Shown: positions 6,304 to 24,517 of the stretch, one piece after another
How the letters are laid out: the number at the start of each line of letters is the position of its first letter
Position numbering within the stretch: the stretch's first letter is position 1
Origin: an uncultured Clostridia bacterium
Lineage (GTDB): Bacteria; Bacillota; Clostridia; Oscillospirales; Oscillospiraceae
NCBI GenBank assembly: GCA_945836055.1
Contig: CAMAKJ010000001.1
Coordinates: forward strand, 1 to 51,129
Reading direction: 5' to 3'
DNA: 51,129 bases
Made by a program: the position numbers and the translations under genes
The notes under the pieces: generated by a model
Told to the model about the DNA's origin: nothing
What the model saw: the letters and a program-made list of their open reading frames with translations, nothing else
The model's database searches: none

Positions 6304-6332
6304 TTGCGAACCCTTGCCGGATATGGTAAAAT
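6304..6332 (+). promoter_or_regulatory. Sigma-A promoter of msmX
   Basis: TTGCGA-17 nt-TAAAAT with extended -10 TG. Confidence 0.65.
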
Positions 6333-6405
6333 GTGCATATCCAGGTGGATCATGTCTACTCCACACAATAGGCATGGTACCGCTATAATTAAAGGAGGAT
6401 AAAAC

Positions 6406-6512
6406 CGATGGCGCACGGTACGGCAGTGTGGAGACCTGTCGTAATGCTCCCGGAATTTCACCTTCCGGGCAAGCGAGAACGCATGCGAAAATGGTAGGTG
6501 CGTTCAGCGTCG
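6406..6512 (+). ncRNA. Candidate structured cis-regulatory RNA in the msmX leader
   Basis: Three hairpins (tacggcag/ctgtcgta, cccggaa/ttccggg, gaacgcat/gtgcgttc) enclosed by cgatg/cgtcg. Confidence 0.5.
6408..6497 (+). CDS. Candidate 29-aa leader uORF (MAHGTAVWRPVVMLPEFHLPGKRERMRKW)
   Basis: Preceded by AAAGGAGG at 6391-6398; lies wholly within a multi-hairpin leader. Confidence 0.4.
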   Translation: MAHGTAVWRPVVMLPEFHLPGKRERMRKW

Positions 6513-6520
6513 AAAACAGT

Positions 6521-7711
6521 ATGGCAAGTTTGACCCTGAAGAACATCAAGAAGATCTACCCCTTCAACGGCGACGACGCAAAGAAGAAGAAAAAGAAGAA
6601 GGGCGAACCCGAGAAGAAGAGCAACCTGCAGATCACTGACAAGGGCGTCGTGGCTGTGCAGGAGTTCAGCCTGGAAATCGCGGACAAGGAGTTCATCGTC
6701 CTGGTCGGCCCCTCCGGCTGCGGTAAGTCCACCACCCTGCGTATGATCGCTGGCCTGGAAGAGATCTCCGAGGGCGAACTGTACATCGGCGACCGCCTGG
6801 TCAACGACGTGGCTCCCAAGGACCGCGATATCGCCATGGTCTTCCAGAACTACGCACTGTACCCCCATATGACCGTTTACGAAAACATGGCCTTCGCTCT
6901 GAAGCTGCGCCATACTCCCAAGGACGAAATCGACAAGAAGGTTAAGGAAGCTGCTGAGATCCTGGACATCACCCAGTACCTGGGCCGTAAGCCCAAGGCT
7001 CTGTCCGGCGGTCAGCGTCAGCGTGTTGCCATCGGCCGCGCCATCGTCCGTAACCCCCAGGTCATGCTGATGGACGAGCCCCTGTCCAACCTGGACGCCA
7101 AGCTGCGTAACCAGATGCGTGCTGAGATCATCAAGCTGCGTCAGCGCATCAACACCACCTTCATCTACGTTACCCACGACCAGACCGAGGCCATGACCCT
7201 GGGCGACCGGATCGTCATCATGAAGGACGGCTTCATCCAGCAGATCGGCACACCTCAGGAGGTCTTCAATCATCCTTACAACCTGTTCGTCGCTACCTTC
7301 ATCGGTACGCCTCAGATGAACATGTTCGAGAACGCCAAGCTGGTGAAGGTTGACGGCAAGTACGCCGTTCAGCTGGACAACCAGACCGTGGTTCTGTCCG
7401 ACGAGAAGCAGGCTGCTCTGGCCAAGAACAATGTGGCTGAGCAGGATGTGGTTCTGGGCGTCCGTCCCGAGCACGTTGAGCTGACCGCCGGCGGCATCGA
7501 GGGCAAGGTCGACGTGTCCGAAATGATGGGCTCCAGCGTCCACCTGCATGTCACCTCCATGGGCCGCGACGTGGTTCTGGTGGTCTCCACCATGAACATG
7601 ACCGGCGCCGAGGTCGCTGCCCTGTCCAGCGGCTCCACCGTTCACTTCTCCTTCCCCGGCCATGTGTGCCACATCTTCTCCAAGGAGACCGGCATCAATC
7701 TGGAAGCCTGA
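6521..7711 (+). CDS. msmX: Orphan multiple-sugar ABC transporter ATPase (MsmX/MsmK/UgpC family)
   Basis: MASLTLKNIKKIYP start, Walker A GPSGCGKST, AMVFQNYALYPHM, LSGGQRQR, DEPLSNLDAKLR, C-terminal TOBE region (LGVRPEH). No permease adjacent. Confidence 0.93.
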   Translation: MASLTLKNIKKIYPFNGDDAKKKKKKKGEPEKKSNLQITDKGVVAVQEFSLEIADKEFIVLVGPSGCGKSTTLRMIAGLEEISEGELYIGDRLVNDVAPKDRDIAMVFQNYALYPHMTVYENMAFALKLRHTPKDEIDKKVKEAAEILDITQYLGRKPKALSGGQRQRVAIGRAIVRNPQVMLMDEPLSNLDAKLRNQMRAEIIKLRQRINTTFIYVTHDQTEAMTLGDRIVIMKDGFIQQIGTPQEVFNHPYNLFVATFIGTPQMNMFENAKLVKVDGKYAVQLDNQTVVLSDEKQAALAKNNVAEQDVVLGVRPEHVELTAGGIEGKVDVSEMMGSSVHLHVTSMGRDVVLVVSTMNMTGAEVAALSSGSTVHFSFPGHVCHIFSKETGINLEA

Positions 7712-7724
7712 TTTTCCGTCTTCC

Positions 7725-7759
7725 AAACGGGCCTGCCTTTACCGGCAGGCCCGTTTTTT
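7725..7759 (+). terminator. Intrinsic terminator after msmX
   Basis: aaacgggcctgcc-tttacc-ggcaggcccgtttttt. Confidence 0.88.
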
Positions 7760-8151: not shown

Positions 8152-10485
8152 ATGAATAACAACTGTCAGAATATCCTGAAATGGACCGAAGCACAGCTGA
8201 AGTACACATACGACGTTTCGTTGCAGCAGGCAACGCCCCAGGAGCTGCATGAGGCTCTGGGCCAGGCCGTTATGATGGCCATTTCCGACGACTGGAGCCG
8301 TTCCAAGAGAACCCGTATGCCCAACCGCAAAGCCTACTACATCTCTGCCGAGTACCTGATCGGCCGGCTGGTATATTCCAACCTGTTTAATCTGGGCATC
8401 CTGGACGAGATGAAGGAGCTGTTTGCCCAGCGGGGCGTGGACCTGGCGGTTCTCGAGGATATCGAGGATGATGCCCTGGGCAACGGCGGCTTGGGCCGTC
8501 TGGCTGCCTGCTTCCTGGACAGCGCCGCTTCCACCAACATCCCCTTGTCCGGCTACGGCCTGCGCTACAAGTTCGGCCTGTTCAAGCAGAGCTTTGACGC
8601 CGAGGGCAATCAGGTTGAAAACGCCGATGACTGGACGAAGTTCGGCGATCCCTGGTCCTTCCGCCGCTACAACCACACCGTAAAGGTCAAGTTCCCCGAT
8701 CACACCGTCCTGGCCGTTCCCTATGACGTGCCCATCATCGGCTACGGCACCAGCAACGTCGGCACCCTGCGCCTGTGGCAGTGCGAGGCCGAGGAGGAGC
8801 TGGACTTCAACGCCTTCAACAACCAGGATTACCTCCGGGCGCTGGATGCCAAGAACAAGGCTGAGGACATCACCCGGGTGCTGTACCCCAACGACTCCAC
8901 CTGGGAGGGCAAGCGCCTGCGCATCAAGCAGCAGTACGTGCTGTCCTCCGCGTCCCTGCAGGATATGCTGCGCACCTATAAAATCGCCCACGGCAGCGAT
9001 CTGAGCCGTTTTGCCGAGTTCTACGCCGTGCAGCTCAACGACACCCATCCCGCCATGTCCATCCCCGAGCTGATCCGTCTGCTGATGGCTGAGGGCATGA
9101 GCTTTGACGATGCCTTCAATGTGGCCCAGAAGACCTTCTCCTACACCAACCACACCGTCATGGGTGAGGCCCTGGAGAAGTGGCCCCTGGATCTGATGCG
9201 AAGTGTGGTGCCCGAAATCGTGGACATCATCTGCCGCATCGATCAGAAGCTCAAATGGGAGCATCCCGGGCTGTTCATTGTCAAGGACAATACCGCCCAT
9301 ATGGCGAACCTGTCCATCTACGTCGGCTCCTACATCAACGGCGTGGCGGAGATTCACTCCCAGATCCTGAAGGACGACTGCTTCAAGGACTGGTACTATG
9401 CCTTCCCCGAGCGCTTCCAGAATAAGACCAACGGCATTACCCCCCGCCGCTGGCTGGGCCTGTGCAACCCCGAGCTTACCGGCATGATCCGGGAGAAGGT
9501 CGGCGGCGACTTCCTGAAGGACCTGGAGCTGATCGGCGGCCTGAAGAATCAGATTACCGACGAGACCGTGGCGGAATTCAACGCCATCAAGCGTGTGAAG
9601 AAGGAGCAGCTTTGCGCCGTTGTCGCAAAGCACGAGGGCGTGACCCTGAACCCCGACTTCATCTTTGATGTTCAGGTCAAGCGCCTGCACGAGTATAAGC
9701 GGCAGCTTCTCAACATCCTGTCCGTTGTGGATATCTATTTCCGCCTGAAGGAAGGCCGTCTGCCGGACTTCCAGCCCACGGTTTACCTCTTCGGTGCCAA
9801 GTCCGCCCCCGGCTACGCCCGGGCCAAAGCCATCATCCGCTACATCAACCGTGTGGCGAAGATGATCAACAACGACCCCGCCGTCGCCGATAAGCTGAAG
9901 GTGGTCTTTGTTCAGAACTACAACTGCTCCTACGCCGAGCACATCATCCCCGCTGCCGACATTTCCGAGCAGATTTCCCCTGCCGGCACCGAGGCCTCCG
10001 GCACCGGCAACATGAAGCTGATGCTCAACGGCGCTGTGACCCTGGGCACCCTGGACGGCGCCAACGTGGAAATCGCCCAGGAGGCCGGACTGGAGAACGA
10101 GTATATCTTCGGCCACACCGTGGAGCAGATCAACGCCGTGAAGGATTCCTACCGTTCCCGGGACATCTACGACGCCAACGCGGATCTCCGCCGGGCGATC
10201 AACACCCTGGTGGACGGTACCGTTCCCACGGACGATGCCCAGCGGGAGCTGTTCCATGCTCTGCTGGACGGCAGCAGCTGGCACAAGGCCGACCATTACT
10301 TCCTGCTGCTGGACTACGCTTCCTATTTCGACACCAAGCTCCGTGCCAACCGGGACTATGCCGACCGCATGGCCTTTGGCCGCAAGTGCCTGATGAACGT
10401 GGCCTCCGCCGCCAAGTTCTCCTCTGACCGGACCATCCGTCAGTACGCCGAGGAAATCTGGCACATCACCCCCACCCAGTATTGA
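8152..10485 (+). CDS. glgP: Glycogen/maltodextrin phosphorylase
   Basis: LGNGGLGRLAACFLDS, QLNDTHP, NKTNGITPRRW, KRLHEYKRQ, PLP-lysine motif EASGTGNMKLMLNG, FSSDRTI. Confidence 0.97.
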   Translation: MNNNCQNILKWTEAQLKYTYDVSLQQATPQELHEALGQAVMMAISDDWSRSKRTRMPNRKAYYISAEYLIGRLVYSNLFNLGILDEMKELFAQRGVDLAVLEDIEDDALGNGGLGRLAACFLDSAASTNIPLSGYGLRYKFGLFKQSFDAEGNQVENADDWTKFGDPWSFRRYNHTVKVKFPDHTVLAVPYDVPIIGYGTSNVGTLRLWQCEAEEELDFNAFNNQDYLRALDAKNKAEDITRVLYPNDSTWEGKRLRIKQQYVLSSASLQDMLRTYKIAHGSDLSRFAEFYAVQLNDTHPAMSIPELIRLLMAEGMSFDDAFNVAQKTFSYTNHTVMGEALEKWPLDLMRSVVPEIVDIICRIDQKLKWEHPGLFIVKDNTAHMANLSIYVGSYINGVAEIHSQILKDDCFKDWYYAFPERFQNKTNGITPRRWLGLCNPELTGMIREKVGGDFLKDLELIGGLKNQITDETVAEFNAIKRVKKEQLCAVVAKHEGVTLNPDFIFDVQVKRLHEYKRQLLNILSVVDIYFRLKEGRLPDFQPTVYLFGAKSAPGYARAKAIIRYINRVAKMINNDPAVADKLKVVFVQNYNCSYAEHIIPAADISEQISPAGTEASGTGNMKLMLNGAVTLGTLDGANVEIAQEAGLENEYIFGHTVEQINAVKDSYRSRDIYDANADLRRAINTLVDGTVPTDDAQRELFHALLDGSSWHKADHYFLLLDYASYFDTKLRANRDYADRMAFGRKCLMNVASAAKFSSDRTIRQYAEEIWHITPTQY

Positions 10486-21206: not shown

Positions 21207-21282
21207 GCGCCAGTGGCTCAATGGATAGAGCATCGGATTCCGGTTCCGAGGGTTGGGGGTTCGAGTCCCTTCTGGCGTACCA
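21207..21282 (+). tRNA. tRNA-Arg(CCG)
   Basis: Acceptor gcgccag/ctggcgt plus ACCA, anticodon arm tcgga-ttCCGgt-tccga, T-loop GGTTCGAGTCC. Confidence 0.96.
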
Positions 21283-24278: not shown

Positions 24279-24293
24279 AACCCAACATAACGA

Positions 24294-24517
24294 GAAAAGC
24301 TGAGAAGAGAAGAGTACGCTTTCTTTCCCGTTCAGAGAGCCCCGGAAGGTGCGAGGGGGTACGGCGAGGGGGGCGGAACATGGCCTCGGAGCTGAACCGT
24401 CGATATTCAGGCGGTTCCGGGTACGCCCGTTACCGCGCCACGAGGCAGCGTCTGCTGCGAAACAAGGTGGTACCGCGTCAATTCTGTCGCCCTTGGGTTG
24501 CCCAGGGGCGATTTTTC
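24294..24517 (+). promoter_or_regulatory. Met-specific T-box riboswitch
   Basis: AGAGA and GGTGnGA stem I motifs, specifier ATG at 24380-24382, T-box AAACAAGGTGGTACCGCG at 24460-24477, terminator at 24487-24517. Confidence 0.93.

Follow-up and report, generated by a model that had tools for sequence, protein, structure and literature searches.

A malK-I leader in Clostridia resembles a TnpB guide RNA scaffold and may act as a split ribosome-binding site

An RNA of the malK-I motif precedes an orphan sugar ATP-binding cassette (ABC) ATPase gene in the DNA analysed here, a stretch of 51,129 nt from an uncultured Clostridia bacterium of the Oscillospiraceae (GCA_945836055.1, contig CAMAKJ010000001.1, positions 1-51,129, forward strand), referred to in its entirety as the window. 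As judged by covariance-model comparison, malK-I is a homologue of the RNA that an IS607-family TnpB element has at its right end. We consider it probable that the leader is a domesticated scaffold of a TnpB guide RNA (omegaRNA), whose pseudoknot would bring a distal Shine-Dalgarno (SD) sequence to the ATPase AUG. The motif itself is known: in Weinberg 2017 malK-I was put forward as a possible riboswitch with structure near the SD, and the ligands tested were not bound (PMC5737381). The identification with a TnpB RNA and the testable mechanism that it suggests appear to be new.

The malK-I leader in the window

Positions 6341-6526, which occupy the 5' untranslated region of the malK-type gene, match Rfam malK-I (RF03069) with 107.3 bits against a cut-off of 60.3 over model positions 1-181, making the leader a full-model member of the motif. 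It is the single copy found by the Rfam model search in the genome assembly carrying the window (G000, 84% complete). An earlier sequence-only reading of this DNA had guessed at a known motif and named Rfam, msiK included, as the check; the guess was borne out by malK-I, and msiK gave no match at the leader. The same reading had described a strong SD serving ATG 6408, the start of a 29-codon upstream open reading frame (uORF) that closes at TAG 6497, and an ATPase start devoid of SD. All of this is present: the SD duplex energy is -11.7 kcal/mol for AAAGGAGG at 6391-6398 and -0.8 kcal/mol beside ATG 6521, and the distance from AAAGGAGG to the ATPase AUG is 122 nt (SD energies throughout used a generic anti-SD; the 16S tail is absent from the G000 assembly).

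Three hairpins are predicted between the SD and ATG 6521, as that reading proposed; its closing stem of cgatg and cgtcg did not hold up, the closing helix being 6410-6414 with 6507-6511, in which 5/5 pairs covary. Taken singly, the window leader folds in a way that barely exceeds chance (z -1.55), so support for the fold comes from covariation across homologues and not from single-sequence folding. The fold is a pseudoknot, in which the stem of hairpin S1 (CCG 6405-6407 with CGG 6416-6418) carries a loop, GGCGC 6410-6414, that pairs with GCGUC 6507-6511 to form helix S2. The pseudoknot encloses stem-loops P4-P6, and an additional kissing interaction is predicted between the loops of P1 and P4.

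For comparison, 116 malK-I elements were extracted, one duplicate, one very weak match and two cut matches having been omitted beforehand; two that fell below the cut-off were dropped and 111 of the remaining 114 were parsed, which gives the denominator used below. The features of the leader and its gene are as follows.

6304..6332, + strand: sigma-70-type promoter, -35 TTGCGA and extended -10 TAAAAT, with a predicted transcript start at ~6339-6341
6341..6526, + strand: malK-I RNA (RF03069), homologue of the right-end RNA of IS607-family TnpB elements by covariance-model matches
6344..6384, + strand: P1 hairpin, loop 6359-6368 starting with CUCC; two-sided changes at 6/6 pairs, pairing in 77% of cells
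6391..6398, + strand: SD AAAGGAGG, <=-8 kcal/mol at the same place in 110/111 homologues
6405..6418, + strand: nexus-like hairpin S1, whose loop 6410-6414 pairs with 6507-6511
6408..6497, + strand: species-private uORF of 29 codons, ATG 6408 to TAG 6497; the ATG breaks S1 pair 4
6419..6443, + strand: P4 stem-loop, whose loop GGAG 6430-6433 is predicted to kiss CUCC 6359-6362 of P1
6446..6474, + strand: P5 stem-loop, from structure prediction and the Rfam model
6477..6505, + strand: P6 stem-loop, from structure prediction and the Rfam model
6507..6512, + strand: 3' strand of pseudoknot helix S2 (covariation) and probable site of the former transposon right end, active elements ending 1 base past the helix
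6512..6520, + strand: S2-to-AUG spacer, which likely descends from the host's original SD-AUG spacer
6521..7711, + strand: orphan MalK/UgpC/MsmX-type sugar ABC ATPase, 396 aa (NCBIfam PRK11650)
7725..7759, + strand: probable terminator, a hairpin with a U run read by eye and not flagged by the terminator scanner

A promoter-like site (>=9 of 13) is present in 63/111 homologues, and in 53 of them the -10 ends 26-27 nt before the P1 loop. A candidate internal promoter with TATAAT at 6384-6389 was discarded, being found in just 2/111.

A displaced Shine-Dalgarno sequence is conserved with the fold

malK-I occurs in 54/61 genomes of the genus, 52/151 of the family, 6/151 of the order and 6/150 of the class. 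The separation of SD and start codon by a folded domain, first noticed in the window, proved to be family-wide: GGAGG lies 105-127 nt upstream of the start in the homologues with a strong upstream SD (110/111). An SD of <=-8 kcal/mol is found at this upstream place in 110/111 and beside the AUG in 1/111; the displaced SD far exceeds chance expectation across the family. ATPase homologues that lack the element have an adjacent SD of that strength in 23/27 scored cases (30 loci, 3 unscored; starts were picked by N-terminal likeness). The SD-to-AUG distance shows no preferred frame (31/38/42 modulo 3 in the 111 homologues).

The helices vary in a compensated manner. In S2, two-sided changes occur at 5/5 pairs and 99.3% of cells are paired (58 sequences); the fourth pair of S1 is intact in 110/111 (U-A 55, C-G 43, U-G 10, G-C 2), and the third flips from G-C to C-G in 6 homologues. 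P4, with 99% of cells paired, is invariant within malK-I. The kissing loops read CUCC/GGAG in malK-I and CUCU/AGAG in the transposon form described below, a compensatory change. The spacer from S2 to the AUG measures 6-9 nt in 109/110 homologues with a full S2, and the GGAGG-to-start spacing of G000 genes genome-wide peaks at 7-8. The single-stranded linkers sum to 10-20 nt (median 15), to which the helix stack is added, and their lengths are weakly anticorrelated (rho -0.27; p 0.08 in a family-level set, kin not being independent).

Two further candidate signals were rejected. Pairing of AUGGCA with the 3' strand of P4 showed no covariation by eye, GCA being the commonest second-codon Ala in G000 (17/38), and the leader loops lack the ANGGA consensus of CsrA-type sites. 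A UUYYRCY word in the P5 region (window 6456-6462) recurs in 58/111 homologues, with no consistent partner found. At L055:1287-1470 (- strand) the 5' half of a malK-I RNA stops inside P4 and continues into unrelated coding sequence, by rearrangement or misassembly.

The uORF fared differently. The sequence-only reading had proposed coupling through it or a -1 slip into the MsmX frame, and its supporting observations are correct for the window: the MsmX frame is open through the leader, an in-frame ATG lies at 6491, and CGA-AAA (6486-6491) stands before the stop. None of them is a conserved trait, the frame being open in 32/111 and neither the in-frame ATG nor the slip site being kept among the 111 homologues. 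An ATG 4-12 nt past the SD occurs in 4/111, with neither frame nor length in common. The comparison of leaders that had been named as a check thus retains the displaced SD, the fold and its covariation, and loses the start, frame and length of the uORF. ATG 6408 itself is real in the species, with 0 differences across 6408 in contigs of 4/4 DNA runs (drawn from four studies whose labels read pig gut or gut). Metagenomes scanned for the pattern of this leader variant had given 0 matches, and the DNA contigs later confirmed the variant. It is a private change and the sole base that breaks the fourth S1 pair (an A.A mismatch). Standing 9 nt past the SD, it may draw some ribosomes; with frames random among homologues and its nearest relatives lacking the uORF, it is most improbable that coupling or frameshifting governs the ATPase.

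The leader is homologous to the right-end RNA of IS607-family TnpB elements

Sub-threshold malK-I matches were found in another family of the class, with the fold kept, a CUCU/AGAG kiss and unrelated downstream genes. One genome of this kind, G382, carries the RNA at >=21 places with 90-97% identity; several of these copies follow a tnpB remnant, and they have a common left end directly behind an SD-like word. A TnpB search from G382 led to three complete elements, L205 (Anaerophilus nitritogenes), L227 and L235, of 2,043-2,045 bp (L205:1000-3044). Their plan is that of IS607, with a MerR plus Resolvase TnpA followed by a PF01385/PF07282/PF12323 TnpB. The RNA lies at the right end of the element, overlaps the last tnpB codons through P1 and ends one base past S2, and a full-length tnpB directly precedes it at 7 loci. 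Several RNAs adjacent to tnpB give weak matches to Rfam malK-I (L206, E 2e-6; L227, 8e-5; L235, 0.02).

In the opposite direction, a covariance model, R1, was trained on 8 RNAs next to tnpB plus 2 orphan AT-rich RNAs and no malK leader, its fold being supported in the alignment of its member RNAs. R1 matches the window at 6339-6521 with 41.1 bits (E 1.8e-8; its E-values are rough), the next match in the window reaching 10.1 bits. It matches 26/26 of the malK-I loci tested (26 of the 116), 0/4 element-less ATPase loci and 0/29 other TnpB loci. More distant TnpBs carry other RNAs and not this one.

The fold agrees with the omegaRNA plan, in which the loop of the nexus hairpin pairs with the scaffold's 3' end, and three stem-loops are present. 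This shape, together with the position at the tnpB 3' end and element end, is the basis on which we infer that the right-end RNA is an omegaRNA. RuvC-type acidic residues are conserved in the TnpB alignment (A2). Element ends are sharp between differing flanks at L227/L235 and in the G382 and G840 copies, which by eye fits the absence of a target-site duplication. A GG core dinucleotide is absent from the junctions of these IS607 relatives, which have mostly TG and some CG, TA or GA, suggesting a variant core. Neither a RAGATH-18 match to Rfam at element loci (E up to 0.5-1) nor a group I intron match in the loci scanned was found.

The clade comprises L205, L227, L235, L272, L273, L277 and L278, with TnpBs of ~400 aa and 67-89% identity among close homologues. 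Its right-end RNA has no Rfam match besides the weak one to malK-I, and its flank consensus is GGTG-like. The TnpB is distantly related to PDB 8iaz (E 1.6e-17), the entry linked to ISFba1.

Landing sites, the internal Shine-Dalgarno sequence and orphan copies

A long open reading frame (ORF) starts 6-11 nt past S2 in 13/17 G382 copies and 10/10 copies elsewhere (23/27), and one G382 copy precedes the only full-length cysS of that genome (98% complete). Insertions also lie within operons in G382, at cysE-cysS and rnfA-rnfB. Judged by the N-termini of their products, other downstream genes resemble secA, recR and rnfB and those of butyrate kinase, an Rrf2 regulator and phosphoglucomutase. When the element was removed in silico, an SD of -9.5 or better was restored at 9/11 sites with both ends. 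Past the tnpB stop and ahead of the pseudoknot, the element has its own strong SD, with different words in different copies and hosts and energies of -10.6 to -13.9 kcal/mol (-7.3 in 2 copies). From these insertion sites and internal SDs, the element parts a gene from its SD and brings another. The window leader likewise reads as an insertion into an SD-spacer-AUG site, AAAGGAGG being the SD of the inserted element: deletion in silico leaves a normal ribosome-binding site (RBS), as had been remarked earlier, and insertion directly behind an SD would account for a malK-I spacer as long as an ordinary SD spacer. The sequence-only reading had also marked AAAAC repeats at 6401-6405 and 6513-6517; these exist in the window, both linkers share a 5-mer in only 4/111, and a target duplication is unsupported because IS607 elements produce none (PMC6188088).

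The G382 loci L157-L186 represent a burst of >=21 non-autonomous derivatives before housekeeping genes, many at contig ends and 234-439 bp long where both ends are visible.

Orphan copies without tnpB stand before signalling-type and other genes (L059/L151 and L158/L159, from G192 and G377; L251; L253; L269) and may be independent domestications. These copies are kept across species, have shortened P5/P6 and lack the terminal G. The genes behind them look HD-GYP-, PAS- and GGDEF-like. At L254:1484-1574 (- strand), P1 and the SD are kept and the pseudoknot domain is gone, leaving the SD 10 nt from a GTG start; the gene that follows is homologous to the one after L251.

The ATPase gene and its history

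The product of 6521-7711 is UgpC/MalK-type, exceeding the cut-off of NCBIfam PRK11650. The gene has the top C-ending codon bias among 1,042 crudely called G000 genes and is therefore likely to be well translated without a local SD. Of eight solute-binding-protein loci in G000, four have no ABC ATPase match within 7 kb and a fifth has a match of only 27%, and the orphan ATPase likely serves several transporters. A Lys-rich insertion of ~25 residues near its N-terminus (window 6545-6640) is confined to one subclade and missing in ~372-aa forms.

A quick tree of 85 ATPases puts each of the 55 element-bearing sequences in one clade of 60 rows (SH-aLRT 92). The five element-less rows of that clade are one cut at its contig start, one broken long branch and a subclade of three, this subclade lying directly behind other ORFs and having an ordinary SD. 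A single insertion with later loss would fit this tree. No tnpA or tnpB remnants were found upstream of 115 malK-I leaders, and G000 gave no match to PF07282. With the left end, tnpA and tnpB missing, the window holds a remnant, not a transposon.

Two element-less orthologues (L121, L122) directly follow maltodextrin-metabolism-like genes, and a group II intron fragment lies near an element-less ATPase gene at L122:637-721.

Discussion

The malK-I leaders keep the fold, SD place and short spacer of the element with no tnpA or tnpB nearby, and they combine a distant SD, a conserved structure behind it and no SD at the AUG. On the reading that we favour, a single ancestral insertion would have landed ahead of this ATPase clade, after which the left end, tnpA and tnpB would have been lost, the RNA being retained because it had become the gene's sole RBS. 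The 30S subunit would pair with the distal SD, 122 nt upstream, with the folded domain held outside the mRNA channel, and the AUG would thereby enter the P site. Our best reading of malK-I is a domesticated omegaRNA scaffold that would act as a split RBS of ~120 nt. Structure-bridged initiation was one of the mechanisms raised by the sequence-only reading and is the best of them; the observation on which it was built is confirmed, and the interpretation as a whole is partly supported. Sugar-dependent control, which had also been suggested, has no positive evidence and is unsupported because the identical RNA type precedes many unrelated genes. We further hypothesize, with about even confidence for and against, that SD-targeting IS607-TnpB elements hide a replacement SD in their guide RNA, the pseudoknot serving as a ribosome bridge of ~120 nt, and that hosts repeatedly keep the RNA without the protein, the malK-I leader of one gut family being such a case and possibly a switch.

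Several points weigh against this account. Bridging, TnpB binding and expression are predictions from sequence and fold. Under a liberal rule that takes the best of possible starts, 24/111 malK-I genes have an in-frame start with an SD of <=-8 (72.5% of 1,011 crudely called genes in G000). The linkers, at 10-20 nt, exceed the 5 and 11 nt of the phage T4 cases discussed below, and the offset between them is weak. Four of the 17 G382 copies have no long ORF start at the right end: in two of these the ORF that begins with an ATG at 6 nt is short or cut, and the other two have none. A weak SD is found at 2/11 reconstructed sites, and left ends were chosen, within 1 nt, to give the best SD energy, a slightly circular procedure. 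The single-clade origin comes from a quick tree. No active element of this type was found in the family, where 11/351 genomes have only distant TnpB matches and the RNA follows none of the 14 loci of this sort that were scanned, and no living intermediate between the AT-rich element and the GC-rich leader was found. Finally, bridging alone leaves the long retention unexplained, since a simple deletion gives a normal RBS, as at L254; retention despite so easy a deletion suggests that an added regulatory role is possible, if less likely than its absence.

The leading alternative accepts the same origin and takes the leader to be a true switch today, with a metabolite or the free MsmX ATPase stabilising or opening the fold and so turning initiation on or off; in one variant, the CUCC of the P1 loop could pair by turns with the P4 loop and with the SD. 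It is compatible with the explanation that we prefer, from which it differs in what selection now maintains, and we regard it as possible and clearly the less probable. The RNA is kept in 52/151 family and 54/61 genus genomes though no TnpB partner was found, P4 and the kissing loops are near-invariant, the gene encodes an orphan ATPase likely to serve several transporters, and precedents exist in the riboswitch candidacy proposed in 2017 (PMC5737381) and in the ATPase feedback proposed for the msiK motif (PMC2864571). Set against this, the few ligands tested showed no binding (PMC5737381), the invariant positions are those common to the transposon form, whose CUCU loop matches the P4 loop and not the SD, and other orphan copies are maintained ahead of unrelated genes (L059/L151, L158/L159, L251, L269). 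The upstream SD could instead be a stabilising SD (STAB-SD) or standby site, at which a 30S subunit shields the mRNA or waits nearby while the AUG is used without SD pairing. cry3A has a non-initiating SD at about -129 (PMC4113751), and the linkers, taken together, are long for a direct bridge; yet operon-internal insertions (cysE-cysS and rnfA-rnfB in G382) put the SD far from any 5' end, the spacer past S2 remains 6-9 nt long, the same SD is in direct use at L254, and nearly all such genes in the family use an adjacent SD, so that we consider this unlikely. A reversed history, in which an IS607 element captured a cellular malK-I-like leader, or the likeness is convergence, is less likely still: malK-I is far more widespread than the element in the searches made and the RNA comparison is unrooted, whereas P1 lies inside the tnpB coding sequence, the fold follows the general TnpB omegaRNA plan, the spacer past S2 is the normal SD spacer predicted by insertion at an SD, and orphan copies arose ahead of several unrelated genes. 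Likeness at the level of sequence speaks against convergence.

Two further explanations both seem very doubtful. The leader might still guide a TnpB, or a nuclease-dead TldR, in trans, with the 5' end of the ATPase gene as the guide; the scaffold is intact, and TldRs occur next to genes of ABC transporters (PMC13622181), but G000 gave no PF07282 match and the family has distant matches only (see above), the flank from 6513 or 6514 has no second 12-nt match in G000, shorter flank matches are mostly without an SD-like motif in front (first 12 of each list), and no tnp remnant lies upstream of 115 leaders. Splicing out of the folded domain in the manner of an IStron, slightly less credible again, would rejoin the SD to the AUG, as IS607 IStrons do (10.1101/2023.11.20.567912) and as the normal RBS obtained by deleting the domain would allow. 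Against it stand the want of group I intron matches in the loci scanned and the RNA-library contigs, which run with 0 differences from 6421-6425 across the AUG in 2/4 runs. These contigs show no joint between SD linker and spacer, but they start past 6415 and cannot show its absence, and they show neither level, strand nor ends. Missing RNA-contig cover over 6340-6415 (4/4 runs) was set aside as uninformative, DNA contigs breaking at the same conserved word and short 5' tips being liable to loss in assembly, and so were joints from 6441/6447 to 6518/6521, which recur in DNA runs and stem from other organisms.

Each part of the proposed system has a known relative. In T4 genes 38 and 25, one hairpin shortens the SD-AUG spacing from 22 to 5 and from 27 to 11 nt (PMC3014915); the leader shares with these split RBSs a structure between SD and AUG, whereas it spans 105-127 nt, is a pseudoknotted multi-helix domain, chromosomal and family-wide, and its bridging is predicted. 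ISFba1 is an IS607-family TnpB element with a RAGATH-18-derived right-end RNA (reRNA) whose scaffold of ~190 nt has two pseudoknots (Ren et al. 2024), and related IS607 TnpBs read AGGAG or GAGGG, which are SD-like (PMC11061315). The elements described here likewise have an IS607 TnpB followed by a scaffold, an SD-like target and an orphan Weinberg motif that would be the TnpB RNA; they differ in having no RAGATH-18 match, a GGTG-like flank and an RNA that persists without the protein. TnpB omegaRNAs are built as a nexus hairpin, whose loop base-pairs to the scaffold's 3' end, three stem-loops and then the guide (10.1101/2023.11.20.567912). As in CboIStron and the IS607 IStrons, a serine TnpA, a TnpB, a nexus pseudoknot in the omegaRNA, three stem-loops and a softening of host damage come together, but there is no intron, and damage to the RBS would be mended through folding and an internal SD in place of splicing. 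TldRs are a parallel case, in which hosts reuse a TnpB system whose transposon ends have been lost (10.1101/2023.11.30.569447; PMC13622181). A TldR keeps the protein and a guide that acts on DNA in trans; here the RNA alone remains and would act, in cis, on translation. The msiK motif (RF01747) likewise precedes a shared sugar ABC ATPase as a structured leader, there a single bulged hairpin covering the RBS in Actinobacteria (PMC2864571).

The main-text passages on malK-I consulted in PMC5737381 give neither the 120-nt displacement nor the transposon origin, both seen here. In the available parts of other papers, PMC11061315 has no mention of Shine, ribosome or malK, the TldR papers (10.1101/2023.11.30.569447 and PMC13622181) have none of malK, and PMC7266159 contains neither malK nor msiK as a whole word; in 10.1101/2021.11.03.467129 malK-I appears in script text only. 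No literature linking malK-I to TnpB, or placing an SD inside an omegaRNA, was found, subscription journals being largely outside the scope of the search.

An orphan riboswitch candidate with failed ligand tests thereby gains an origin and a mechanism that can be tested. If the mechanism is true, SD-led initiation would extend across ~120 nt, a distance four to five times that of the T4 precedents and relevant to the way in which a 30S subunit makes room for folded mRNA between SD and P site. Transposons may then limit their harm by carrying an RBS within the guide RNA, and a domestication route would exist that keeps the RNA and not the nuclease, turning an RNA-only OMEGA system into a translation-initiation element. 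A compact TnpB clade is also named, with a likely guide RNA and an SD-like target motif, and other orphan motifs beside start codons, including malK-II and -III, are open to the same comparison.

Other features of the window

Downstream of the ATPase gene lies a gene (window 8152-10485, + strand) that we take to encode a glycogen/maltodextrin phosphorylase-like protein. The window also contains a tRNA at 21207-21279 (+ strand) and a T-box leader at 24293-24497 (+ strand).

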